Counted from the stretch's first letter, positions 39,403-58,584 are shown. The stretch is 64,000 nt of DNA from Acidiferrobacteraceae bacterium (GCA_003228915.1 QIGL01000052.1:13090-77089); one strand, 5' to 3'. Numbers and translations: made by a program. Notes: generated from the sequence alone by a model not told the origin.

Positions 39403-39417
<15 letters not shown>

Positions 39418-39662
39418 TTCATAAAGAAAAGACCCCTTCATGGGGTCTTTTTTTATGAATTATGTTTTTGTGGGAGGAGAACCCCGGGTTCGACATTGCG
39501 CAGGGATGCGCAGGTGTCGCGTAGGCCAGGGATGACCTGAGCGAAGCGAGGAAATGCTGAATGAAACCCGAAGGGGTTCTACAGTGGGCCGAGAGCGGCG
39601 ACCCTTGGGGACGCCATTCATAAAGAAAAGACCCCTTCATGGGGTCTTTTTTTATGAATTAT
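39403..39662. repeat. 61-bp perfect direct repeat (39403..39463 and 39602..39662) flanking a 138-bp insert
   Basis: Both copies read cccttggggacgccattcataaagaaaagaccccttcatggggtctttttttatgaattat. That is the last 15 nt of tRNA-Glu plus its terminator. The insert has inverted termini agaacccc (39478..39485) and ggggttct (39573..39580). Confidence 0.85.
39430..39454 (+). terminator. Rho-independent terminator after tRNA-Glu (an identical second copy lies at 39629..39653)
   Basis: Stem agacccc, loop TTCAT, stem ggggtct, followed by a T-run. Confidence 0.8.
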
Positions 39663-39774
39663 ATTTCGTTTTCTGCGGGGGAATACAAACCCTGAGTTGA
39701 TGACATATATCACAAAAAATGTTGGGTGTTAAAACGACGGTAACGATCGTAATCACTGTATTTCACGGCAATCG

Positions 39775-39803: not shown

Positions 39804-39866
39804 TGACCAGTGCGGAGAAAGGGGTCAGCCAAAACGTGACGGGGCCTTAGCGCCTAACCTGTTTGC

Positions 39867-39895
39867 TTGACCTGTGTCCGACACGCACTTAATAT
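39867..39895 (+). promoter_or_regulatory. Sigma-70 promoter with embedded TGTGT-N3-ACAC box (copy 1), upstream of the second DsrE-like gene
   Basis: TTGACC TGTGTCCGACACGCACT TAATAT, 17-nt spacer. Confidence 0.5.
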
Positions 39896-40034
39896 CTTCC
39901 TTCGCGTTGTCGGTCTGTAAATATTAACAGGCGGAGGATTGTGTGTGTTCAGTTCAAGTAAAACGTTTCGTAAACTGCCTCAAGAGAAACCAAACTAATC
40001 ATTATACCGAGGCGATAATTGGAGGATATAAAAA

Positions 40035-40475
40035 ATGAGTAAATTAATAAGAAATTCAAGCCTGATTGTACTAATGTCGTTATTTGTTTTTGGGAATTTA
40101 AGCGCGTTTGCTGGTGCGAAATTGCCGCATAAAGTAGTAATCCAGGTTAGTACTGATGATCCAAGAACCCAAAAAATAGCATTGAATAATGCCGTCAACC
40201 TGCAGAAGCTTTATGGTATTGATAATATTAAGATTGAAATTGTTGCCTATGGTCCAGGACTTGGGTTGTTGACAACAAAGAGCAAGCAGGCCGATAGAGT
40301 GAAAAGCCTGGCAGTGCAGGAGATAACCTTTAGCGCATGCCATAATACTATGAAAGGTGTTAAACGCAAAACAGGTAAAATGCCCGTCCTGCTTGAAGGT
40401 GTCGGAATGGTCACAGCAGGTGTTGCCCGTATTATAGAATTGCAAGAACAAGGGTACGCCTACGTCCGACCATAA
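40035..40475 (+). CDS. Secreted DsrE/DsrF-like family protein (paralog of 3208..3654)
   Basis: GGAGG RBS, signal peptide (FVFGNLSAFA). IEIVAYGPG, FSACHNT and GYAYVRP align along the full length with the 3208 protein. Confidence 0.75.
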   Translation: MSKLIRNSSLIVLMSLFVFGNLSAFAGAKLPHKVVIQVSTDDPRTQKIALNNAVNLQKLYGIDNIKIEIVAYGPGLGLLTTKSKQADRVKSLAVQEITFSACHNTMKGVKRKTGKMPVLLEGVGMVTAGVARIIELQEQGYAYVRP

Positions 40476-40537: not shown

Positions 40538-40683
40538 AGGTTTAGGTAAGCCCGTTAATGGTAGCGGGCGCTATATGTAAAGATATCGACGAAGTTCTCC
40601 GCACCAATAGACAGTCAACCGAAGAGATAAGCAGGCATATAAACGAACTTCGGTGCCAATTCAAGAAACCTACACCTTAGTGC

Positions 40684-40712
40684 TTGACATGTGTCTAACA
40701 CACACTTTCTAT
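40684..40712 (+). promoter_or_regulatory. Sigma-70 promoter with embedded TGTGT-N3-ACACA box (copy 2), upstream of the YVTN gene
   Basis: TTGACA TGTGTCTAACACACACT TTCTAT, 17-nt spacer. About 295 nt upstream of ATG 41008. Confidence 0.5.
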
Positions 40713-41007
40713 CTTTGAAAACACAGGAAACCAGCTGAAACAGACAATACTAGTATAGTGGTTTGTTCGCGGTGATAAGTGCTTTGCAGTTGCCACCGTA
40801 ACCGGGGTTTTTACATATATAAATTGGATATACCAAAAAATCCTCTGGAAAACTACTGGTTGTGGTTGTTGTAATAACAGTAACGAATATTAGTAATGGA
40901 TGATCCTGATCAGAGCGTGTAGCAACGATGTCATATGCGAAGCTGGATTCTGCCTGTAAATAACTCATTCGCTCGTTCATAGTTTCGATAACAACGGAGA
41001 TGAAGTA

Positions 41008-42135
41008 ATGAATAAAAATTTAATTTTGTTTTTCAGTATTATCATGGCGGGAACATTTTTTGCCGGCTCCCTCCCGGCTGTGGCAGGGAAAAAATCAGAT
41101 GAAGCAACGATTCTTTATATCACTAACGAAGGAAGTAACACGCTCTCGATAATAGATGGAGAAAAATATAAAGTTATCACAACAATACCGGTGGGCAAAA
41201 CCCCCCACCATCCATGGCTAGTGCCGGGAGGCAAGTATGTGTTTACCGATAACAGGGGGGAGAATACCTTGTCGGTAGTTGATGTAAAAGCCGGCAAAAC
41301 AATTAAAACCATCACCGTAGGTAACGCCCCCACTCATATAGTGTTTACGCCAGATGGAAAATATGCCTATGTGGCCAATACCAAAGATAAAACTACCTCG
41401 GTAATCGATCTTGCTGAACTCGAGGTCGCTGCCACTATTACAACCGGTGGCGGCTCACACGATCCTGCCATCACCCCGGATGGCAAGTTTGTCTATGTCA
41501 CTGCCAGGAAACCTGGCCATGTGGCAGTGATCGACACGTCCACGAATAAGGTCATTAAGAAAATATCCACGGGTGGAAAAGCGAATGGCGTGCGTATGAC
41601 AAAGGATGGCAAGTTTGTCTGGGTGGGTAATACCAAGGCCGGAACCGTATCCGTTATCGATACCGCGAAAAATAAGGTGGTCGCCACAATCAAGTCCGGT
41701 GCCGGAACCCATAACATCCGTTTTTCACCAGACGGTAAATATGCCTACGTCGGCAATATGAAAGATGGCAACCACGCAGTGATCAACACGGCCACATATA
41801 AGGTCGTTACACGAATACCGACTGGCAAAGGTGCAAACATCGCCTATTTCCATCCAAACGGTAAATACATCTATTTCTCCATTAACAAAGCCAATGAGAT
41901 CCCGGTAGTAGATGCTAAAACCAACAAGATAATTACGAAGATTCCAATCGGTGAAGGTGGTACGCACAACCTGGCCTTTGTGGATGGTGGCAAGTTCCTC
42001 TACGCCACCAGTTGGTTCGGTGAATATATCCTTGTGATTGATACCAGGAAAAATAAAGTTATCAAAGAGATACCGGCGATGTTCTCCAACGGCATAAAAG
42101 TAAAAGGCGCAACACCAGCGACCGGCAGGGGATGA
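41008..42135 (+). CDS. YVTN-family beta-propeller repeat protein, secreted
   Basis: Signal peptide (FFAGSLPAVAG). About 8 repeats of ~40 aa of the form Y-V-x-N-x-x-x-x-T-(L/V)-S-V-I-D...I-x-V-G-x-x-P-x-x-(I/V)-x-x-(T/S)-P-D-G-K. Confidence 0.85.
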   Translation: MNKNLILFFSIIMAGTFFAGSLPAVAGKKSDEATILYITNEGSNTLSIIDGEKYKVITTIPVGKTPHHPWLVPGGKYVFTDNRGENTLSVVDVKAGKTIKTITVGNAPTHIVFTPDGKYAYVANTKDKTTSVIDLAELEVAATITTGGGSHDPAITPDGKFVYVTARKPGHVAVIDTSTNKVIKKISTGGKANGVRMTKDGKFVWVGNTKAGTVSVIDTAKNKVVATIKSGAGTHNIRFSPDGKYAYVGNMKDGNHAVINTATYKVVTRIPTGKGANIAYFHPNGKYIYFSINKANEIPVVDAKTNKIITKIPIGEGGTHNLAFVDGGKFLYATSWFGEYILVIDTRKNKVIKEIPAMFSNGIKVKGATPATGRG

Positions 42136-42297: not shown

Positions 42298-42416
42298 CGT
42301 GCCCTGTTCGGGGGTAACTGTCGTGCCCTGTTCGGGGGTAACTGTCGTGCCCTGTTCGGGGGTAACTGTGGGCGCCACCTGGCAAGGACTATCGGCGCCA
42401 CCTGACAAGGAATATT
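42298..42416 (+). repeat. Two back-to-back tandem repeat arrays immediately upstream of the exporter start codon
   Basis: cgtgccctgttcgggggtaactgt x3, perfect, 24 bp (42298..42369). Then ggcgccacctggcaaggactatc / ggcgccacctgacaaggaatatt, 23 bp x2 (42371..42416). The ATG is at 42420. Confidence 0.9.
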
Positions 42417-42419
42417 GTT

Positions 42420-44771
42420 ATGCGAAAGCTGGTCGAACAATATGTCCCGGGTTATACTCGCTGGATTATACGCTGGCGCTGGCTGGTAGTAGTTGCAAGC
42501 CTGATTGCGGTGGCAGCAGCGGGTTATGGTTTGCGTAATTTTGCATTCACTGCTGATTACAAAGTCTATTTCGGAAAAGACAATCCCGAGCTCATTACTT
42601 TTCAAAAATTCGAGAACACTTATACCAATACCGAGAATATCCTTTTTGTCCTTCAGCCCAGGGATAAAAATATTTTCACCCGCGAGACCCTGGAGATTGT
42701 CAAGCAACTGACCGAAAAGGCCTGGCAAATTCCTTATGCCATTCGTGTCGACTCGCTTACCAATTACCAGCATACCGAGGCCAAGGGCGATGATCTGACC
42801 GTGGCTGACCTGGTGGCAGAACCACAAGCACTGAAGGCTGCCGACCTGGACAGGATCAGGGCCGTGGCACTTGAAGAGCCAGCCCTGGTAGGGCGCATGA
42901 TCGCGGCAGATGGCGCCACCACCGGTATCTCGGTGACCTTACAGTTTCCTGGCACAGACCATACTGGACATTTACCCAAGGCAGTGGCCTACGCAGAAAA
43001 AATTACGGCGGAGTTGCGTATAACCCATCCTGATCTGAGAGTGGCCCTCACTGGCGTTTCAATCTTCAGTGCAGCGGAAATCCAGGTTAGTGAATCGGAT
43101 TCATACGTCCTGGTGCCAGTAATGTACGGCCTGATGATTACGTTATTGTTGGTACTTTTGCGCTCGGTTTCCGGTACCGTGACAACACTGCTTGTGGTCA
43201 GCTTGTCGGTCATTACTGCCCTGGGGCTCATGTCCTGGACAGGTCTCAAGATGAATGCATCGACGGCACTGGCGCCGATTATTATTCTTACTCTCGCTAT
43301 TGCCGACAGTGTCCACATCTTGCTGACCACCTTCGACGAAGTGCGTGCTGGCCGCTCGAAAAATGAAGCCCTGGTAGAAAGTTTGAGCATTAATGCGGAG
43401 CCGGTGTTTTTGACCATGTTAACGACAGGCATCGGTTTTTTTAGCCTCAATTTTTCTGACTCACCGCCGTTTAATGATCTTGGTAATATCACCGCTATCG
43501 GGGTTATTGCCGCCTGGATATTCTCCATGACTTTTCTGCCCGCGTTAATGTCGATCCTGCCATTGCGACTACGACCGAAAACAGGTGAACGACGCCTGGC
43601 CATGGATCGTTTCGGCGATTTCGTGGTTAGTCGTCGCGTGCCCTTGTTTTGGAGCATGATGATAGCCAGCATTGTCATTATCGCCTTCATTCCTCGCCTT
43701 GAACTGGATGACCGTTTTATCCAGTGGTTTGATGAAAGCATTCCGTTTCGTGTCGATACGGATTTTGCCACTGCTAATCTTACGGGCCCTTATACGCTGG
43801 AGTATTCCATCGACTCCGGCGAGGCTGGTGGTATTTCTGAGCCCGAATACTTGCAACGACTGGAGACTTTTACCATCTGGTTGCGAGCACAGCCCGAGAT
43901 TACCCACGTCAATAGTTTCACTGATGTAATAAAGCGGCTCAACAAGTCCATGCATGGCGATGACCCCGGTTGGTACCGGTTACCTGATAAGCGGGAACTG
44001 GCCGCACAATATTTATTATTGTATGAAATGTCTCTGCCCTATGGTCTTGATCTCAATAGCCAGATTGATCTGGGTAAATCGGCAACACGGTTAACGGTGA
44101 CCCTGGATACTATCCCGCAGAAAAATATTATCGAGGTAATAAAGCGCAGCGAATCATGGCTGTCGGATAACATGCCACCGGCCATGCAGGCAAGGGCGAC
44201 AGGCACCATTGTCATGTTCGTGAATCTTGCGATCCGAAATATTTACAGCATGTTGGGCGGCACGATCCTGGCTTTTGTATTGATTTCCTTAACGCTGATA
44301 TTTGCCCTACGTAGCATTCGCCTGGGCTTGATAAGCCTGATCCCCAACTTTTTGCCGGTGTTAATCACCTTTGGTTTATGGGCAATTTTCGTTGGCGAGA
44401 TTGGGCTCATTGCCTCTATGATTACCGCTACCAGCATGGGACTCATTGTCGATGATACGGTCCACATACTTAGCAAGTACCGGCGCGCAAAACACGCGCA
44501 AAACCTTGGTACCCACGATGCAATTCGTTACAGCTTTTCCCATGTGGGTAAGGCCCTCTGGGTAACCACTTTGATAATGATTGCCGGATTTATTGTGTTG
44601 GCCTTTTCCAGTTACAAGCTAAATGTCGAAATGGGTATACTGACTGTCATGGCCGTTGGTGTAGCCTTGGCCATGGATTTCCTGCTATTACCCTCTTTAT
44701 TAATGTTTATGGATAAAGACAAACAATGTAACTGTGTCACTTGTCGGGAGAAACATCTTGCTACAACATGA
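42420..44771 (+). CDS. MMPL/RND-superfamily exporter (12-TM, two large periplasmic loops)
   Basis: 783 aa. Two homologous halves, each with a TM bundle carrying an SSD-like segment (ILTLAIADSVHIL and MGLIVDDTVHILSKY). Confidence 0.85.
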   Translation: MRKLVEQYVPGYTRWIIRWRWLVVVASLIAVAAAGYGLRNFAFTADYKVYFGKDNPELITFQKFENTYTNTENILFVLQPRDKNIFTRETLEIVKQLTEKAWQIPYAIRVDSLTNYQHTEAKGDDLTVADLVAEPQALKAADLDRIRAVALEEPALVGRMIAADGATTGISVTLQFPGTDHTGHLPKAVAYAEKITAELRITHPDLRVALTGVSIFSAAEIQVSESDSYVLVPVMYGLMITLLLVLLRSVSGTVTTLLVVSLSVITALGLMSWTGLKMNASTALAPIIILTLAIADSVHILLTTFDEVRAGRSKNEALVESLSINAEPVFLTMLTTGIGFFSLNFSDSPPFNDLGNITAIGVIAAWIFSMTFLPALMSILPLRLRPKTGERRLAMDRFGDFVVSRRVPLFWSMMIASIVIIAFIPRLELDDRFIQWFDESIPFRVDTDFATANLTGPYTLEYSIDSGEAGGISEPEYLQRLETFTIWLRAQPEITHVNSFTDVIKRLNKSMHGDDPGWYRLPDKRELAAQYLLLYEMSLPYGLDLNSQIDLGKSATRLTVTLDTIPQKNIIEVIKRSESWLSDNMPPAMQARATGTIVMFVNLAIRNIYSMLGGTILAFVLISLTLIFALRSIRLGLISLIPNFLPVLITFGLWAIFVGEIGLIASMITATSMGLIVDDTVHILSKYRRAKHAQNLGTHDAIRYSFSHVGKALWVTTLIMIAGFIVLAFSSYKLNVEMGILTVMAVGVALAMDFLLLPSLLMFMDKDKQCNCVTCREKHLATT

Positions 44772-44796
44772 TCAAATCATAAGGAGGGTGCCAGTT

Positions 44797-45600
44797 ATGA
44801 ATAAAATAATTCTGGCGCTTGTTATTGCATCTGTAGTGTCTGTGCTGATCCCGGTATCGGTATCGGCTGCCGAGGATCCCGTGGTTAAAGGCGAAGCAAT
44901 TGCTCGCGAATGGGACCGTCGTGATCGCGGATACGGTGATACCAGCGCGAATATGAAAATGATTCTGGAAAACCGCCAGGGGCAAACCAGTGAACGGAAA
45001 ATGCGCATATTCTTCCTTGAAATGCCAAACGAAAATGATGGCGACAAGTCCATGGTGGTATTTGATTATCCCCGCGATATCAAGGGCACGGCATTGCTCA
45101 GTTATTCACATATCCTCAAGCCTGATGATCAGTGGCTCTATCTTCCGGCTTTGAAGCGCGTGAAGCGTATTTCTTCCAACAACAAATCCGGTCCCTTCAT
45201 GGGTAGCGAGTTCGCATACGAGGACATCAGTTCCCAGGAGCTGAAGAAATACAGTTATAAATGGCTGCGTGATGAACCTTGCGGCAAGTCTGATTGTTTT
45301 GTACTGGAACAACGTCCGTTGTATGAGAATTCCGGTTATACCCGTCAAGTTGCCTGGTATGACAAGGAGGCATATCGCCTGCAGCGCATAGACTACTACG
45401 ACCGCAGGAATGCGTTGCTGAAAACACTTGGTTTTAGCAAGTACCAAAAACATTTGGATAAATACTGGCGTGCCCATGACATGTATATGGTCAATAAACA
45501 AACGGGGAAAAAAACCAGGCTGGTTTATGAAAATCTTAAATTTAAAAGTGGACTGACAGACAAGGACTTCACGCAAAGCCGTCTGAAACGTATGCGCTGA
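44797..45600 (+). CDS. Outer-membrane lipoprotein-sorting (LolA-like) protein, secreted
   Basis: AAGGAGGG RBS. ATG lies 25 nt after the exporter stop. Signal peptide (VLIPVSVSA/AEDP). The body resembles the LolA-like family commonly found next to MMPL exporters (recognition from memory). The ORF is open from 44734. Confidence 0.65.
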   Translation: MNKIILALVIASVVSVLIPVSVSAAEDPVVKGEAIAREWDRRDRGYGDTSANMKMILENRQGQTSERKMRIFFLEMPNENDGDKSMVVFDYPRDIKGTALLSYSHILKPDDQWLYLPALKRVKRISSNNKSGPFMGSEFAYEDISSQELKKYSYKWLRDEPCGKSDCFVLEQRPLYENSGYTRQVAWYDKEAYRLQRIDYYDRRNALLKTLGFSKYQKHLDKYWRAHDMYMVNKQTGKKTRLVYENLKFKSGLTDKDFTQSRLKRMR

Positions 45601-45610
45601 TATTTAATCT

Positions 45611-46879
45611 ATGACCCCGCTGATGAGGCCCGCGATATATTTATTAACTATTCTGGCAACAATACTGGCCGTTCTGTCAAAATCAGCCATGGCGCTGGAG
45701 TTCGCCGGTTGGGCTGAGCTGGAGGGCAAAACCTTTCAATACGAGCCGCTCTACGAAGGGCAACAGCAGAACAGCGCTTCGGCTGCTATTCAGCCTGAAA
45801 TTTATCAGGAGTGGGCCGGCGGGAATGCGTTTACCTTTGTTCCTTTTTACCGTTATGACAGTGCCGACGATCAACGAACCCACTTTGATATCAGGGAAGC
45901 CATGTTGCTTTTGCCATGGGAAAACTACGAACTCAGGCTCGGTCTTGGTAAGGTGTTTTGGGGTGTGACGGAAGCGAGCCATCTCGTCGATATTATCAAT
46001 CAAACTGACCTGGTGGAGTCTCTCGACGGGGAAGAAAAACTGGGCCAGCCAATGGTTAACCTTACGTTATTGGCTCAACAGGAAACACTGGGCGTCCTGG
46101 ATTTTTTTGTGCTTCCCTATTTTCGTGAACGGACGTTTCCAGGGCGCGGCGGTCGTTTACGGTTTGATCCTTATATTGATATTGATAATGGGGTTGAATA
46201 CGAAAATAGTGCCAGGCAGGGCCATGTCGATTACGCATTGCGTTACAGCAACACCATTGACAAACTGGACGTAGGAATTTCCTATTTTTACGGGACAACC
46301 CGGGAGCCTGCCTATTTACCGAAGTTCGATGCCAATGGCATCCTGAGCATTATTCCATTTTATGAAATCATCAGCCAGACGGGCCTTGATTTGCAATATG
46401 CTGGTGGTGCCTGGTTATGGAAACTGGAGACTATTTATCGCAGTGGTAACGAAGACGGTAGTTTTTATGCTACTGACGCTGGTGTTGAATATACATTTTC
46501 AGGGACTGGTTTGTCTGGTATGGATCTTGGCCTAATCCTGGAATATTTGTATGACAGCCGTGATTTTGATGTCGACCCTGCAGTACTTATCGCCAGCGGT
46601 TATATTGGCAGCCAGTTTAATACTTTTCTTGATAATGACTACATGATTGGATTACGCCTGGCGTTTAATGACGAGGCCTCGTCCGAGATTCTGACAGGAG
46701 TGATACAGGACATTGACAACCATGCCTCGATATTTCAGCTGGAAGCTAGCCGCAGAATTGGTGACAGCTTAAAAGCAGAATTGGATGCCTATGTATTTAT
46801 GGATACAAGCAAAGACCCGTTGTTGGATTTTCTGCGTAAGGACAGTTTCGTCCAGTTGGCACTGAAGTATTATTTCTAA
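45611..46879 (+). CDS. Putative outer-membrane beta-barrel protein
   Basis: Starts 10 nt after the upstream stop. Signal peptide (AVLSKSAMA/LE), alternating strands, C-terminal LALKYYF. Confidence 0.6.
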   Translation: MTPLMRPAIYLLTILATILAVLSKSAMALEFAGWAELEGKTFQYEPLYEGQQQNSASAAIQPEIYQEWAGGNAFTFVPFYRYDSADDQRTHFDIREAMLLLPWENYELRLGLGKVFWGVTEASHLVDIINQTDLVESLDGEEKLGQPMVNLTLLAQQETLGVLDFFVLPYFRERTFPGRGGRLRFDPYIDIDNGVEYENSARQGHVDYALRYSNTIDKLDVGISYFYGTTREPAYLPKFDANGILSIIPFYEIISQTGLDLQYAGGAWLWKLETIYRSGNEDGSFYATDAGVEYTFSGTGLSGMDLGLILEYLYDSRDFDVDPAVLIASGYIGSQFNTFLDNDYMIGLRLAFNDEASSEILTGVIQDIDNHASIFQLEASRRIGDSLKAELDAYVFMDTSKDPLLDFLRKDSFVQLALKYYF

Positions 46880-46908
46880 AGAGAAAATATCGTATTGGCA
46901 AGCACGAC

Positions 46909-46937
46909 TTGACATGTCACTGACACGTATCTTTTAA
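46909..46937 (+). promoter_or_regulatory. Sigma-70 promoter with a related dyad box (copy 3), upstream of the small metal-motif genes
   Basis: TTGACA TGTCACTGACACGTATC TTTTAA, 17-nt spacer. The dyad is TGTCA-C-TGACA, a weaker match to the TGTGT-N3-ACACA box. Confidence 0.4.
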
Positions 46938-47025
46938 AATCACCTCGTAAGTTTAATATCAAAGAGCGGAATTGTGAGAATGCTGCCGGGTGTGGTTATG
47001 ATTGGTGGAATTTTAGGAGAAAGTA

Positions 47026-47172
47026 ATGGAGTGGCTAACGGAAAACTGGATCTGGGTGCTGGTCGGTCTGGCGTTTTTTGCCCTGCATTTACTGGGTCAT
47101 GGTCGTCACGGTGGTCATGGAAAAAGCGATAAACAGGATAAACCGGGCAAGCAACCAGAACACCGGGATTAA
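47026..47172 (+). CDS. Small His-rich membrane protein (48 aa, DUF2933-like); below the ORF-track size cutoff
   Basis: AGGAGA RBS 6 nt upstream of the ATG. My translation: MEWLTENWIWVLVGLAFFALHLLGHGRHGGHGKSDKQDKPGKQPEHRD. One TM helix plus an HGxHGGHG tail. Confidence 0.6.
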   Translation: MEWLTENWIWVLVGLAFFALHLLGHGRHGGHGKSDKQDKPGKQPEHRD

Positions 47173-47251
47173 CCAAAGCATGTAGTGAGCACATAGTAAT
47201 GGAGACCGGCTTCACCACATTATTATACCGGGAACCATCAAGGAGAAAGTC

Positions 47252-47425
47252 ATGAAAACACAAAACAGTGAACACGAACAGAACCAAAAGGATCCAGTCT
47301 GCGGTATGGATGTCAGTCACGCTGCAGTTAGTGAAGAATTCAAATACCGGGATAAAACCTACTACTTTTGTTCCGGGGCCTGTCGGGAGACGTTTGAGAA
47401 GGAACCTGAGAAATACATTCATTAA
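47252..47425 (+). CDS. YHS-domain protein (57 aa); below the ORF-track size cutoff
   Basis: AGGAGA RBS 6 nt upstream of the ATG. My translation: MKTQNSEHEQNQKDPVCGMDVSHAAVSEEFKYRDKTYYFCSGACRETFEKEPEKYIH. It matches the YHS/TRASH pattern DPVCGM...Y-x-x-x-x-YYFCS-x-x-C-x-x-x-F. Confidence 0.8.
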   Translation: MKTQNSEHEQNQKDPVCGMDVSHAAVSEEFKYRDKTYYFCSGACRETFEKEPEKYIH

Positions 47426-47670
47426 CCCGTAAGTCGTTATCCTGACAAGAAATCAGCAGAACTAGTGTTGACAGGCCGTGAGCTGTGGTCTGCAGGCTGT
47501 TGTTTGAGTCGAGCCCACAAATATTACCATGATATTCCCATTCCGTAGCAGGAATGCATGGCTGGTATTGGTTGCAAGTATCCGAAATAGTGTATAGTCC
47601 GGTTGCAACGGCTTGTTAATACATCATGTTCAACTCAAACAATAAAGTTAATAAGACAATGGAAGGCATA

Positions 47671-48201
47671 ATGAAGAAAAATATTTTTTACCTGATCCTG
47701 TTCAGTTTTTCATTGCTGGCAGCTTGCTCAACGACCCCTACAGACGATATTAAAGTTGAAGCAGCGGCCGACGAGGATGTTAATTTTAGTAATTATAAAT
47801 CCTACGCCTGGGCAGGGGCGGTAGGTATTCTAAATGACCCGGAAGGAAAGTGGAAACAGCCCAATTTTGACATTGATAAAGAGATACAGTTCTTAATGGA
47901 CCGGGAATTCAGAAAAAATGGGTTAACCGAAAATTCCAGTAAACCTGATATGCTCGTTGCCTATGCTCTGGGTGTTGACATGTCTGCACTCAAGCTTAAA
48001 GATGATCCGAATACGAAGACATCAATGCTCAAGAATATCCCAAAAGGCGCTTTAATCATAATTCTTATTGATGCAAAGACGGGTTATGCCATGTGGGTTG
48101 GCCAGGTAAGTGCGCAAATTAAACAAAGTCCAGATATGAAAATTGTTAAAGCACGGCTGGATTATGCAATAACTGAAGTAATGAAAAAAATACCGAAGTA
48201 G
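47671..48201 (+). CDS. Lipoprotein (DUF4136-like)
   Basis: Lipobox LLAACS from the internal ATG 47671 (the ORF is open from 47626). The DUF4136 assignment is from memory of the family. Confidence 0.6.
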   Translation: MKKNIFYLILFSFSLLAACSTTPTDDIKVEAAADEDVNFSNYKSYAWAGAVGILNDPEGKWKQPNFDIDKEIQFLMDREFRKNGLTENSSKPDMLVAYALGVDMSALKLKDDPNTKTSMLKNIPKGALIIILIDAKTGYAMWVGQVSAQIKQSPDMKIVKARLDYAITEVMKKIPK

Positions 48202-48231
48202 TATTTGCAGGATAATTTTATTTCAATTTTA

Positions 48232-48266
48232 AAAACCCCGCTATGCGACTGTATAGCGGGGTTTTT
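48232..48266. terminator. Bidirectional Rho-independent terminator between convergent genes
   Basis: aaaaccccgctat, 8-nt loop, atagcggggttttt. A-run on one side, T-run on the other. Confidence 0.8.
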
Positions 48267-48310
48267 AATGCGCGGTTATAATTTAAAAATTAAAATTCTT
48301 AAAAATATCC

Positions 48311-49495
48311 CTAAAAATATTTAAGATAGAGTATATAGAGCTTTTCGAAAGAATTTTTAACCCTGACAAGAAATTTTGATCGTTTTGGAAAAATATTCCA
48401 AAACGGTGGTTTATTATCACTGGATCTGTGCATCCACATGCCATCATTTTCCATATTCAGGATACAGGAAAGCTCATAACGATAAGTAGTGACAGGTTTT
48501 TTGTTGTTTAAAATGTTGTTCATATTTTTAGCCACGGCTTGCGATCGAAGTTGTGCCATATGTGCCTGGTGGGGCACCCAGGGAGGCGGATTTTCATGGC
48601 TGGCACAGTCACCCGCTGCAAATACATTTTTTAGGCCCTTGACCTGGCCATATTTATCGACATCAACATGACCGCCTGGTGAAACAGTTATGCATGATTG
48701 TTGTAACCATTTTGCACCTGTTATACCAGGAGAATAAAGCACTAAATCCGCTTTTCGGACGGTCCCGTCTTTATCTTTCAGGCCACCTTCGATAAATTCA
48801 GCGGGTTCATAACCATAATCCAGGATAATGCCTCGTTCCTGCAGGCGATCGGTAATGGCACCTGCCTCACCAGGTTTTCTGTTAGGTGAAAAAAAGTGAA
48901 TTTCAAAATTATCCCGTACGCCTTTTTTCTTTAGTGCAAAGTCCAGCAAGGTGGCGCATTCATATATTTGTCCAGCGCGGCCTGCCACAAAACCATCAAG
49001 TTTATTGATCTTAAAACCGATATAAATGACGCCAGAAGTTAGTGACGCCAGTTTGGCCATAAATTTGTCCATATCGTCGGGACCATGACAGGGCGAAAAG
49101 GTGTGCGCTTTTGTGCCGGGAATATCATCATCCAGGAAAGATGGCCCTATACCCAGAAATAATGCATCGTTCTCGTATGATCCATTTTTGGCGATGACTT
49201 TACGGCCATTATCCTGGATATCAATTACGACATCGTCAATAAATTTAATGTTTCGGCGCCGTAAAAAAGGACGTATATCAGTGAGCACACCTTTTTTGTT
49301 TTTCTTTCCCGTGATAAATTCCGGGATTGAAGGGAAATAGGTAAATACACCATTTCCGATAAGTGTAATATCATATCGCGCTATTATTTTTCGGAAGAAA
49401 AACGCAAAAAACGGGTATATCGGTAAAAAGAGTAAATACTGGACTAAAAATAATGAAGCAAACCCATTCCCGACAATAGTTACTTTTTTTCTCAC
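48311..49495 (-). CDS. FAD/NAD(P)-dependent pyridine nucleotide-disulfide oxidoreductase (SQR/NDH-2-like)
   Basis: N-terminal VTIVGNGFAS, C-terminal FAAGDCA flavin motif, 394 aa. A hydrophobic insertion follows the first Rossmann strand. Confidence 0.65.
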   Translation of the reverse strand: MRKKVTIVGNGFASLFLVQYLLFLPIYPFFAFFFRKIIARYDITLIGNGVFTYFPSIPEFITGKKNKKGVLTDIRPFLRRRNIKFIDDVVIDIQDNGRKVIAKNGSYENDALFLGIGPSFLDDDIPGTKAHTFSPCHGPDDMDKFMAKLASLTSGVIYIGFKINKLDGFVAGRAGQIYECATLLDFALKKKGVRDNFEIHFFSPNRKPGEAGAITDRLQERGIILDYGYEPAEFIEGGLKDKDGTVRKADLVLYSPGITGAKWLQQSCITVSPGGHVDVDKYGQVKGLKNVFAAGDCASHENPPPWVPHQAHMAQLRSQAVAKNMNNILNNKKPVTTYRYELSCILNMENDGMWMHRSSDNKPPFWNIFPKRSKFLVRVKNSFEKLYILYLKYF

Positions 49496-58221: not shown

Positions 58222-58584
58222 TTAATTTAAAACATTTTTAATGACGTTTAATAGTTGCTCAGGATTAAATGGTTTTACGATCCAGCCTGTCGCACCCGCT
58301 TCCTTGCATTCCTTTCTTTTTGAATCCTGTGACTCCGTCGTTAACATTAGGATGGGCGTGAATTTATAGTCTGCTAATGATCGCAATTCGCGTACGAGAG
58401 AAATGCCATCCATATTAGGCATATTGATATCTGTGATCACTGCATCAAATTTTGATTTGCGAGCCGCTTCAAGCGCCTCATTGCCATCAGCCGCTTCAGT
58501 TACCTCATAACTGGCATCATTAAGTGTAAAACCAATCATTTGTCTCATTGAGGCAGTGTCATCTACTATAAGAATTGTTGCCAT
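58222..58584 (-). CDS. cheY: CheY-like single-domain response regulator
   Basis: 120 aa. ILIVDD, DINMPNMDG and the conserved K (VKPF). Confidence 0.9.
   Translation of the reverse strand: MATILIVDDTASMRQMIGFTLNDASYEVTEAADGNEALEAARKSKFDAVITDINMPNMDGISLVRELRSLADYKFTPILMLTTESQDSKRKECKEAGATGWIVKPFNPEQLLNVIKNVLN

Follow-up and report, generated by a model that had tools for sequence, protein, structure and literature searches.

A conserved pair of small genes for a DUF2933 peptide and a YHS protein, linked to a MerR-type promoter in an Acidiferrobacteraceae genome

A 64,000-nucleotide stretch of the genome of an Acidiferrobacteraceae bacterium (GCA_003228915.1 QIGL01000052.1:13090-77089; hereafter the window) carries on its plus strand two adjacent small genes, one coding for a 48-amino-acid (aa) His-rich membrane peptide of the DUF2933 family (47026..47172; product MEWLTENWIWVLVGLAFFALHLLGHGRHGGHGKSDKQDKPGKQPEHRD), the other for a 57-aa protein of the YHS family (47252..47425; product MKTQNSEHEQNQKDPVCGMDVSHAAVSEEFKYRDKTYYFCSGACRETFEKEPEKYIH). 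Comparison across lineages established both as real genes whose linkage is conserved, and located them downstream of a promoter with the architecture of those activated by MerR-family regulators, a layout which recurs both within the window and in metagenome loci. The explanation in which we place moderate confidence is that the two genes form a conserved metal-stress-induced unit, in which a cytoplasmic protein with a Cys site would act together with a membrane-tethered His-rich peptide under the control of the MerR-type promoter.

Both families are already known and orthologues of both genes are already annotated, so that nothing reported here overturns current understanding; what is added is the correction of a shadow open reading frame (ORF), the linkage between DUF2933, DUF5676 and YHS genes, and the MerR-type promoter signal. 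We know of no demonstrated function for either the stand-alone bacterial YHS proteins or the DUF2933 peptides.

Identification of the coding strand

The longest ORF of the region (160 aa; 46940..47422) lies on the minus strand opposite the pair, and on length alone might be taken for the real gene, with the plus-strand ORFs as chance occurrences; the probability of this was judged to be close to nil. Its product found no match in Pfam or NCBIfam, and nothing resembling a Shine-Dalgarno sequence precedes its start, both in keeping with a preliminary sequence-only reading of the window which had dismissed the ORF as spurious and lacking a ribosome-binding site, while overstating the case in describing its translation as low-complexity. 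That reading had also reported AGGAGA ahead of each plus-strand ATG, and this motif is indeed present at a distance of 5 nt in both cases: at 47015-47020 for the peptide gene, where it is kept in orthologues, and at 47241-47246 for the YHS gene, where AAGGAGA is invariant. The combination AGGAGA-N5-ATG occurs four times on the two strands of the window against an expectation of 0.26, two of the four being the starts of the peptide and YHS genes and a third the start of another ORF at 58584.

The coordinates and translations previously given for the two genes proved exact. Their description as unannotated held for the ORF track on which it was based, but not for public gene calls, which already include both: public pipelines have called them on near-identical metagenome contigs, recovered by exact-sequence look-up, and on related contigs, and the orthologue P0123 bears the NCBI name 'DUF2933 domain-containing protein'. 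Relatives of the YHS protein with identities of 96, 82, 81 and 79% brought in four more lineages (L005, L008, L011 and L012), L011 being an Acidiferrobacterales metagenome-assembled genome (MAG), and in all five lineages compared (L002, L005, L008, L011 and L012) both frames were kept in the same order despite differing upstream genes. The 79-nt spacer between the two genes (47173..47251) exhibited a mean column identity of 83% among five lineages.

In a six-sequence alignment, the variable columns were distributed over codon positions 1/2/3 as 12/13/34 in the YHS gene and 13/8/24 in the peptide gene, whereas the same substitutions, when assigned to the codon positions of the antisense ORF, fell 33/13/12, that is, mostly on position 1. 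Pairwise ratios of nonsynonymous to synonymous substitution rates (dN/dS) for the diverged lineages were 0.06-0.21 for the YHS gene and 0.09-0.37 for the peptide gene, so that the cross-species check recommended in the sequence-only reading found both small frames conserved (0.06-0.37); every change in the length of the peptide tail was in frame. The antisense stop-free run of 170 codons in the window was reduced to 88-131 codons in the other lineages.

A codon-usage model derived from 21 long window genes gave log-likelihood ratios of +0.16 bits per codon for the peptide gene and +0.10 for the YHS gene, compared with 0.26 +/- 0.05 for typical genes, and of +0.004 per codon for the antisense ORF, which in this respect resembled a further antisense ORF, one facing a certain gene. 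Real genes in the window are frequently faced by antisense ORFs of 100-260 aa. The hypothesis that the minus strand is the coding one is refuted because of the comparative data, the antisense ORF being broken or shortened in orthologues; the plus-strand pair, with its Pfam matches, conserved frames and third-position variation, consists of real genes, and the 160-aa ORF is a shadow ORF and not a gene. The locus thus constitutes an annotation trap in which filters based on ORF length would choose the wrong strand, the 160-aa antisense frame hiding genes of 48 and 57 codons.

The stand-alone YHS protein

Searches with the YHS and DUF2933 profiles, as recommended beforehand, placed both products above the relevant Pfam cut-offs. 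The 57-aa protein matched Pfam YHS (PF04945) with 50.3 bits against a cut-off of 30.3, residues 13-56 aligning with profile positions 2-44 of 47, and its C-x22-C-x3-C pattern plus Asp bears out the earlier assignment to the YHS/TRASH type, the 22 residues between C17 and C40 falling within TRASH-type spacing (C-x19-22-C-x3-C). The candidate ligands D14, C17, C40 and C44 were invariant in 26 homologues of 46-87 aa, as were the DPVCGM, TYYFC and EPEKY blocks; the number of YHS homologues found was 488. These four residues correspond to D178, C181, C204 and C208, the proposed ligands in the copper-responsive YHS domain of the adenylyl cyclase of M. phlei (PMC4626032). Neither a signal peptide nor a hydrophobic or transmembrane segment was detected in the protein.

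An AlphaFold2 model of the protein had a predicted local distance difference test (pLDDT) score of 79, and its top Foldseek matches were YHS domains from phenol and toluene hydroxylases (template modelling (TM) scores of 0.59-0.65, probability 0.97-1.0), followed by ribosomal protein L24e, the TRASH archetype (TM score ~0.5), the E-values being weak on account of the tiny size of the domain. The predicted fold thus agrees with the small treble-clef-like domain, a beta-hairpin plus a helix, seen in solved YHS and L24e structures. A sequence search of the PDB returned only the phenol hydroxylase YHS domain (E about 0.009). The closest annotated relatives found by tblastn, in 3292 records, were the N-terminal YHS regions of plasmid-borne heavy-metal P-type ATPases (41-54% identity), while the score against the NCBIfam model YHS_seleno_dom (NF041384) was 19.5 bits, below the cut-off of 70.

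With the YHS domains of P1B-type ATPases and the M. phlei cyclase the protein shares the DPVCGM...YYFC-x3-C arrangement of Asp plus three Cys, but it is free-standing, at 57 aa unfused to an ATPase or cyclase, and no ATPase signature was found within 64 kb. Another parallel is archaeal CopM of the Sulfolobus copTMA cluster, likewise a small single-domain protein of the TRASH/YHS type (56-71 aa) that forms part of a metal-responsive unit (PMC3595675). CopM, however, shares a transcript with the CopA ATPase and is under the control of CopT, a regulator which itself contains TRASH, whereas the window protein has a membrane peptide as partner, a MerR-type promoter and no ATPase signature. The P1B ATPase linkage that marks chaperones of the CopM/CopZ type was not found in the window, which contained neither a DKTGT signature nor the HMA motif GMTCxxC; together with the lack of any MerR homologue, this agrees with the earlier statement that no P-type ATPase, CopZ or MerR gene lies nearby. 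The five large window ORFs that were checked (~630-820 aa) were Lon, PpiD-like, ABC components and CheA; MMPL and dynamin-like ORFs were identified separately, and a 1780-aa ORF was left out of the Pfam scan.

In the 26-sequence alignment, many stand-alone YHS proteins with no DUF2933 neighbour end in His-rich tails (EHAQHH, QGHHH, EHHH, HHRQHG). Unlike these, the window protein has no His-rich C-terminal tail: in its clade the protein stops just after the domain (EKYIH), and there is instead a separate gene for a His-rich peptide.

The DUF2933 peptide

The first ORF had been described as DUF2933-type, and its product matched Pfam DUF2933 (PF11666) above the gathering cut-off (22.6 against 21 bits), residues 6-37 aligning with profile positions 21-51 of 52; homologues in loci L014 and L019 scored 31-32 bits. 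The peptide has a single hydrophobic span at about residues 8-23, followed by HLLGHGRHGGHG and a charged tail, the His-rich segment comprising H21 and HGRHGGHG. The flank preceding the span is acidic and without Lys or Arg, while the tail has six Lys/Arg residues, so that by the positive-inside rule the orientation is most likely N-out/C-in, which would place the His cluster in the cytoplasm.

A metagenome scan with the peptide alignment recovered 80 loci and 61 distinct peptides. The family consensus was MEWLxENWxWVLxGxxFxxMHxFGHGGHGGHG, with about half of the members terminating in GHQH or GHRH, and DUF2933 was matched by 51 of 69 members. According to published work, DUF2933 genes form part of MerR-CopA-cupredoxin-DUF2933-ICMT clusters and of the Salmonella CHASRI island (PMC8478169, PMC12582456), and the window peptide resembles those copper-locus proteins in belonging to the same family of the hidden Markov model (HMM), in being small, hydrophobic and His-containing, and in its tie to MerR-type regulation and metal genes. 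It differs from them in matching only the C-terminal two-thirds of the model, in belonging to the MEWLxENW...HGGHGGHG subfamily, for which DUF5676 is the usual partner, and in being paired directly with YHS, with none of CopA, cupredoxin, ICMT or DUF5676 alongside. The earlier expectation that DUF2933 and YHS genes typically occur together in copper loci was sound as regards DUF2933 (PMC8478169, PMC12582456), but the pairing with YHS is not typical (16 of 67 loci), and publications in the searched library which mention DUF2933 yielded no link to YHS.

A short ORF with five His codons located upstream of another gene might alternatively be a regulatory leader peptide, mediating His-codon-dependent attenuation of the YHS gene. 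This was judged very improbable and rejected: purifying selection acts on the amino-acid sequence, including the transmembrane segment, the family is large and spread mostly over loci with no YHS gene, the His codons are non-consecutive, and neither a terminator nor an antiterminator was found in the spacer. An Rfam scan of 46700-47800 (E<=1) likewise detected no riboswitch or leader family.

A side observation on the peptide family concerns locus L020 (739-6487), a Binatia MAG, in which a YHS gene follows genes for an AcrB/CusA-type RND pump and a P-II-like protein; the peptide homologue, situated 1.2 kb downstream, has Cys in place of part of the His cluster (GGGCCGMGH).

The promoter of the pair and its recurrence

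The promoter motif noted at 46909 in the sequence-only reading corresponds to the -35 element TTGACA (46909-46914) of a promoter extending over 46907..46940 on the plus strand, in which a 20-bp spacer with a weak dyad (46915-46934) separates it from the -10 element TAAAAT (46935-46940). The surrounding block ACGACTTGACATGT..CT..CAC.TATCTTTTA.AAT (46903-46940) was essentially invariant in six loci, although synonymous divergence (dS) of the genes reached 0.3-1.5 and the upstream gene in L005 differs. The only hexamer in range with A at position 2 and T at position 6 sits at the 20-bp spacing (TACAAT in L008), and the full 34-nt promoter consensus had the peptide promoter as its sole match in the window. 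A consensus scan for sigma-70 promoters and terminators produced nothing above shuffled sequences, missing the peptide promoter because only 16-18-bp spacers were allowed. The short palindrome TTGACATGTCA, taken by itself, was no commoner than chance would predict (20 matches against 22), and preference was given to the longer conserved block.

The pattern CTTGACATGTNNCTNNCAC, built only from the invariant columns of the peptide-promoter orthologues, had two more matches in the window, where 0.10 would be expected, at 40683 with no mismatches and at 39866 with two. The former corresponds to a sibling promoter (40684..40715, plus strand; TTGACA, 20 bp, TATCTT) upstream of the gene for a beta-propeller protein of the YVTN/YncE-like type (41008..42135), with a dyad TGTGT-N3-ACACA and seven of ten pairs in the 21-bp frame; the latter to a sibling promoter (39867..39898, plus strand; TTGACC, 20 bp, TATCTT) upstream of a DsrE-like gene (40035..40475), with the dyad GTGTC-C-GACAC. 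All three sites, including both sibling promoters, are conserved in the diverged relative L005, and this common cis-element gives some basis to the earlier suggestion that the pair is co-regulated with the DsrE-like and YVTN genes.

With a relaxed pattern from which the -10 element was left out, sites were located upstream of DUF2933 genes or operons in L014, L096, L099, L100, L103, L146, L153, L156, L115 and L173, farther upstream of the peptide gene in L131, L097 and L170, where the gene driven was not established, and, in L018, immediately before a MerR-family gene. TAnnnT followed CTTGAC(C/A) at exactly 20 bp in 20 of 22 sites, and in a 21-bp frame beginning at the AC of the -35 element the 22 sites exhibited 4-7 dyad pairs out of ten, compared with 2.5 +/- 1.4 under the null; the sibling and metagenome sites reached 6-7.

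MerR-family metal sensors activate such promoters by untwisting the spacer. The combination of a 19-20-bp spacer with a palindrome is a known signature of MerR-family activation (PMC8113463, PMC1526738), and the window promoters share with those of CueR, ZntR, CadR/PbrR and MerR the CTTGAC -35, the TAnnnT -10 and a putative dyad inside the spacer, beginning at the AC of the -35 (PMC1526738, PMC8113463), the overlong 20-bp spacer being as for ZntR and firmicute MerR (PMC1526738, PMC8113463). They differ in that the dyad, of the type AC(C/A)TGT...ACAG(G/C)T, is unlike any published signal and degenerate in the peptide promoter, and in having no adjacent regulator gene. Given the 20-bp-spacer layout, at least three promoters of the window are likely to be under the control of a MerR-family sensor encoded in trans.

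A MerR homologue was detected nowhere within the window, but genes of the MerR clade occur in the related loci L014, L018, L110, L115, L118, L156 and L170. The YHS-linked regulators of L014 and L018 scored best on the ZntR, MerR, CueR and CadR models (67-84 bits, under the equivalog cut-offs), compared with ~37 bits on SoxR and 20 bits on CarH. A light-responsive regulator of the LitR/CarH type, an idea which arose from the CFA-synthase and FAD-oxidoreductase neighbours of some YHS genes, was rejected on the CarH score of only 20 bits. The two linked regulator genes of the metal-sensing clade (L018:780-1427 and L014:7274-7708), located near YHS genes and matching ZntR best in NCBIfam at below cut-off, code for proteins with a Cys in a ...SPCPRV... 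motif and an H-x2-C-H near the C-terminus; the L018 gene has its own 20-bp-spacer promoter, and is followed by genes for an FAD-dependent oxidoreductase and an HDIG-domain protein.

Linkage of the peptide to YHS and other partners

The gene most often found next after the peptide gene codes for DUF5676, a protein with two transmembrane segments, which held this position in 38 of the 59 loci long enough to be assessed. Within the ~3-6 kb fetched either side of the peptide gene, YHS, MerR-family and HMA-domain genes were present in 16, six and five of 67 loci, respectively; cytochrome c, ICMT and FtsH genes were also recurrent. The order peptide-DUF5676-YHS was found in L019, L097 and L128, and peptide-DUF5676-CBS-YHS in L014, while L100 and L153 are independent instances of direct peptide-YHS pairs. 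No DUF5676 was found by tblastn in the window, L005, L008, L011 or L012. The notion that DUF2933 is a general partner of YHS was rejected: among 80 loci of stand-alone YHS genes drawn from genome representatives, an HMM of the peptide detected a nearby homologue in only three.

Fusions of DUF2933 to DUF5676 were observed in L121 (3001-3264) and L124 (950-1216), MEWLSENW...HLFGHG running into LPGFEW...GLVYVPIYNAF, and these are Rosetta-stone evidence for joint action of the two small membrane proteins. In a search of plasmids with the peptide (tblastn), a Methylophaga homologue labelled 'hypothetical' was matched weakly (E 0.5) and is yet a true homologue, the gene for which immediately follows one for an HMA-domain protein and precedes DUF5676.

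It might be supposed from such associations that the two window genes, though both real, are functionally unrelated, the YHS protein acting alone and the peptide being a small accessory subunit. Such a subunit might serve DUF5676-type proteins or else some membrane machine, such as the MMPL/RND-type exporter encoded upstream, in the way that AcrZ does. In four of the five lineages a cluster of MMPL, LolA-like and putative outer-membrane genes immediately precedes the peptide gene, the peptide family occurs mostly with DUF5676, to which it is even fused in L121 and L124, and L015 has a YHS gene with LolA-like and 423-aa genes and no peptide. L005, however, retains the peptide-YHS pair with no MMPL cluster, the two genes have a single conserved promoter and near-identical translation-initiation regions with no terminator detected between them, and independent lineages again have YHS adjoining the peptide operon or forming part of it; functional independence was accordingly judged improbable.

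A broader proposal, which we advance only tentatively and regard as possible rather than probable, is that the pair is a local, reduced form of a widespread MerR-controlled small-membrane-protein module, the core of which would be the DUF2933 His-rich peptide, usually with, and sometimes fused to, DUF5676, and which would recruit various small proteins with metal or redox roles (YHS, HMA, cytochrome c). The operator AC(C/A)TGT-N9-ACAG(G/C)T within the 20-bp spacer would then define a new MerR-subfamily regulon which, in this sulfur-oxidiser-like lineage, would also drive periplasmic DsrE-like and beta-propeller proteins, thereby linking metal and sulfur stress. The promoter signal, which recurs ahead of DUF2933 genes across many uncultured lineages, could be of use in defining such an unassigned MerR-subfamily regulon.

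Proposed mode of action

The favoured explanation, that of a metal-stress-induced unit, would operate as follows. From the distribution of charged residues and the lack of export signals we infer that the peptide would be a single-pass inner-membrane protein with its short acidic N-terminus in the periplasm and its His-rich segment and Lys/Arg tail in the cytoplasm, and that the YHS protein would be cytoplasmic and stand-alone, with a site of Asp plus three Cys. The one conserved promoter would transcribe both genes and, with the nearby DsrE-like and beta-propeller genes under the same promoter type, they would belong to a small regulon, the regulator of which would be encoded outside the window. 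Under metal stress (Cu, Zn or Cd) that regulator would activate the unit, and the soluble Cys site and tethered His cluster might then bind or buffer metal at the inner membrane face, bound metal possibly being handed to transporters. The earlier description of a stand-alone metal-handling pair is therefore retained only in part: the pair is conserved, but it is probably not regulator-free, its promoter having a MerR-type 20-bp spacer, and metal handling is something that we infer.

A response to sulfur or redox stress rather than to metal was considered unlikely, but deserves more weight than the leader-peptide and antisense-gene hypotheses. In that case the three YHS cysteines would act as sensors or carriers of sulfane sulfur or of an oxidant, and the pair, in a lineage of sulfur oxidisers, would be expressed together with the periplasmic DsrE-like and beta-propeller proteins. 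Consistent with this are the promoter element which the pair has in common with the DsrE-like and beta-propeller genes, a neighbouring flavoprotein weakly similar to type III sulfide:quinone reductase (SQR), the origin of orthologue L011 in an Acidiferrobacterales MAG, and the clustering of some stand-alone YHS genes with those for SDR, FAD-oxidoreductase and CFA-synthase and with no metal genes. Opposed to it are a promoter layout and linked regulators which belong to the metal-sensing MerR clade, with SoxR and CarH scoring far lower, the HMA genes that adjoin the peptide family in some loci, the HGGHGGHG His-rich motif, which is typical of metal ligation, and the weakness of the DsrE Pfam match (26.8 bits).

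A number of observations nevertheless weigh against a metal-stress unit under MerR-type control. In crystals, toluene and phenol hydroxylases have no metal bound at their YHS domains (PMC4626032), and no MerR gene, ATPase or HMA protein was detected within the 64 kb. The spacer dyad matches no published CueR, ZntR, CadR or MerR signal (PMC1526738); in the peptide promoter it is weak, with four of ten pairs against a null of 2.5 +/- 1.4, and L005, L008 and L011 have not kept the local dyad TGTCA-C-TGACA. The Pfam score of the peptide is marginal and its coverage of the model partial (21-51 of 52), codon-usage support for both small genes is modest and below that of typical genes, and most DUF2933-type peptides pair with DUF5676 and not with YHS. 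Finally, the other regulon members (DsrE-like, beta-propeller) and the SQR-like flavoprotein suggest sulfur or periplasmic chemistry, not classical metal resistance. The conserved linkage, and a MerR-type promoter which the pair has in common with two other genes, provide a testable entry point from which to establish the inducing metal, the regulator, and any cooperation between His tail and Cys site.

Surroundings of the pair

A lipoprotein gene of the DUF4136 family (47671..48201, plus strand; Pfam DUF4136 59.8 bits, lipobox LAAC) follows the YHS gene across a conserved 245-nt gap in all orthologous loci with enough sequence. Because a conserved 8-bp hairpin with a weak T-tract (CAGGCCGT/GTGGTCTG, then GTTGTTT; 47472..47492, plus strand) lies within this gap, it is uncertain whether the lipoprotein gene belongs to the operon; the hairpin, a possible weak terminator after the YHS gene, is absent from the terminator-scan output and was given by an RNAalifold consensus with some covariation. 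A near-palindrome in the same gap, TTACCATGATATTCC (47525-47540; TACCATGGTA in L011), is also conserved, and may be an operator or promoter element of the lipoprotein gene.

Beyond the lipoprotein gene lies a minus-strand gene for a flavoprotein (Pyr_redox_2; 48311-49495) which adjoins the module in all orthologous loci; its product weakly resembles type III sulfide:quinone reductase as well as members of the 'N-terminal to SelD' family of oxidoreductases. Between these convergent genes is a perfect 16-nt inverted repeat, TTAAAAACCCCGCTAT / ATAGCGGGGTTTTTAA (48229-48268), which is probably a bidirectional terminator.

The upstream cluster comprises MMPL, LolA-like and 422-aa genes, the last probably coding for an outer-membrane protein, and is not present in L005. 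In L015 (3999-6514), a gammaproteobacterial MAG, the region comparable to window positions 44734-46879 has a YHS gene between a LolA-like gene and a homologue of the 422-aa gene (63% identity); its 65-aa product ends in the tail HHHRQHGVKPK, and the gene, which has no peptide partner, is downstream of one for an FtsX-type ABC transporter. This arrangement suggests a link between YHS and the LolA-like/422-aa envelope-transport cluster. Just before the MMPL start (42420), positions 42298-42410 contain three perfect tandem copies of the 24-nt unit CGTGCCCTGTTCGGGGGTAACTGT, after which a 23-nt unit is present twice.

Farther upstream, intergenic DNA preceding the DsrE-like gene contains a 65-nt direct repeat (39403-39467 and 39602-39666; 98% identical), each copy of which carries a terminator-like hairpin, AAAGACCCCTTCATGGGGTCTTTTTTT; this may be a small repeated or mobile element.

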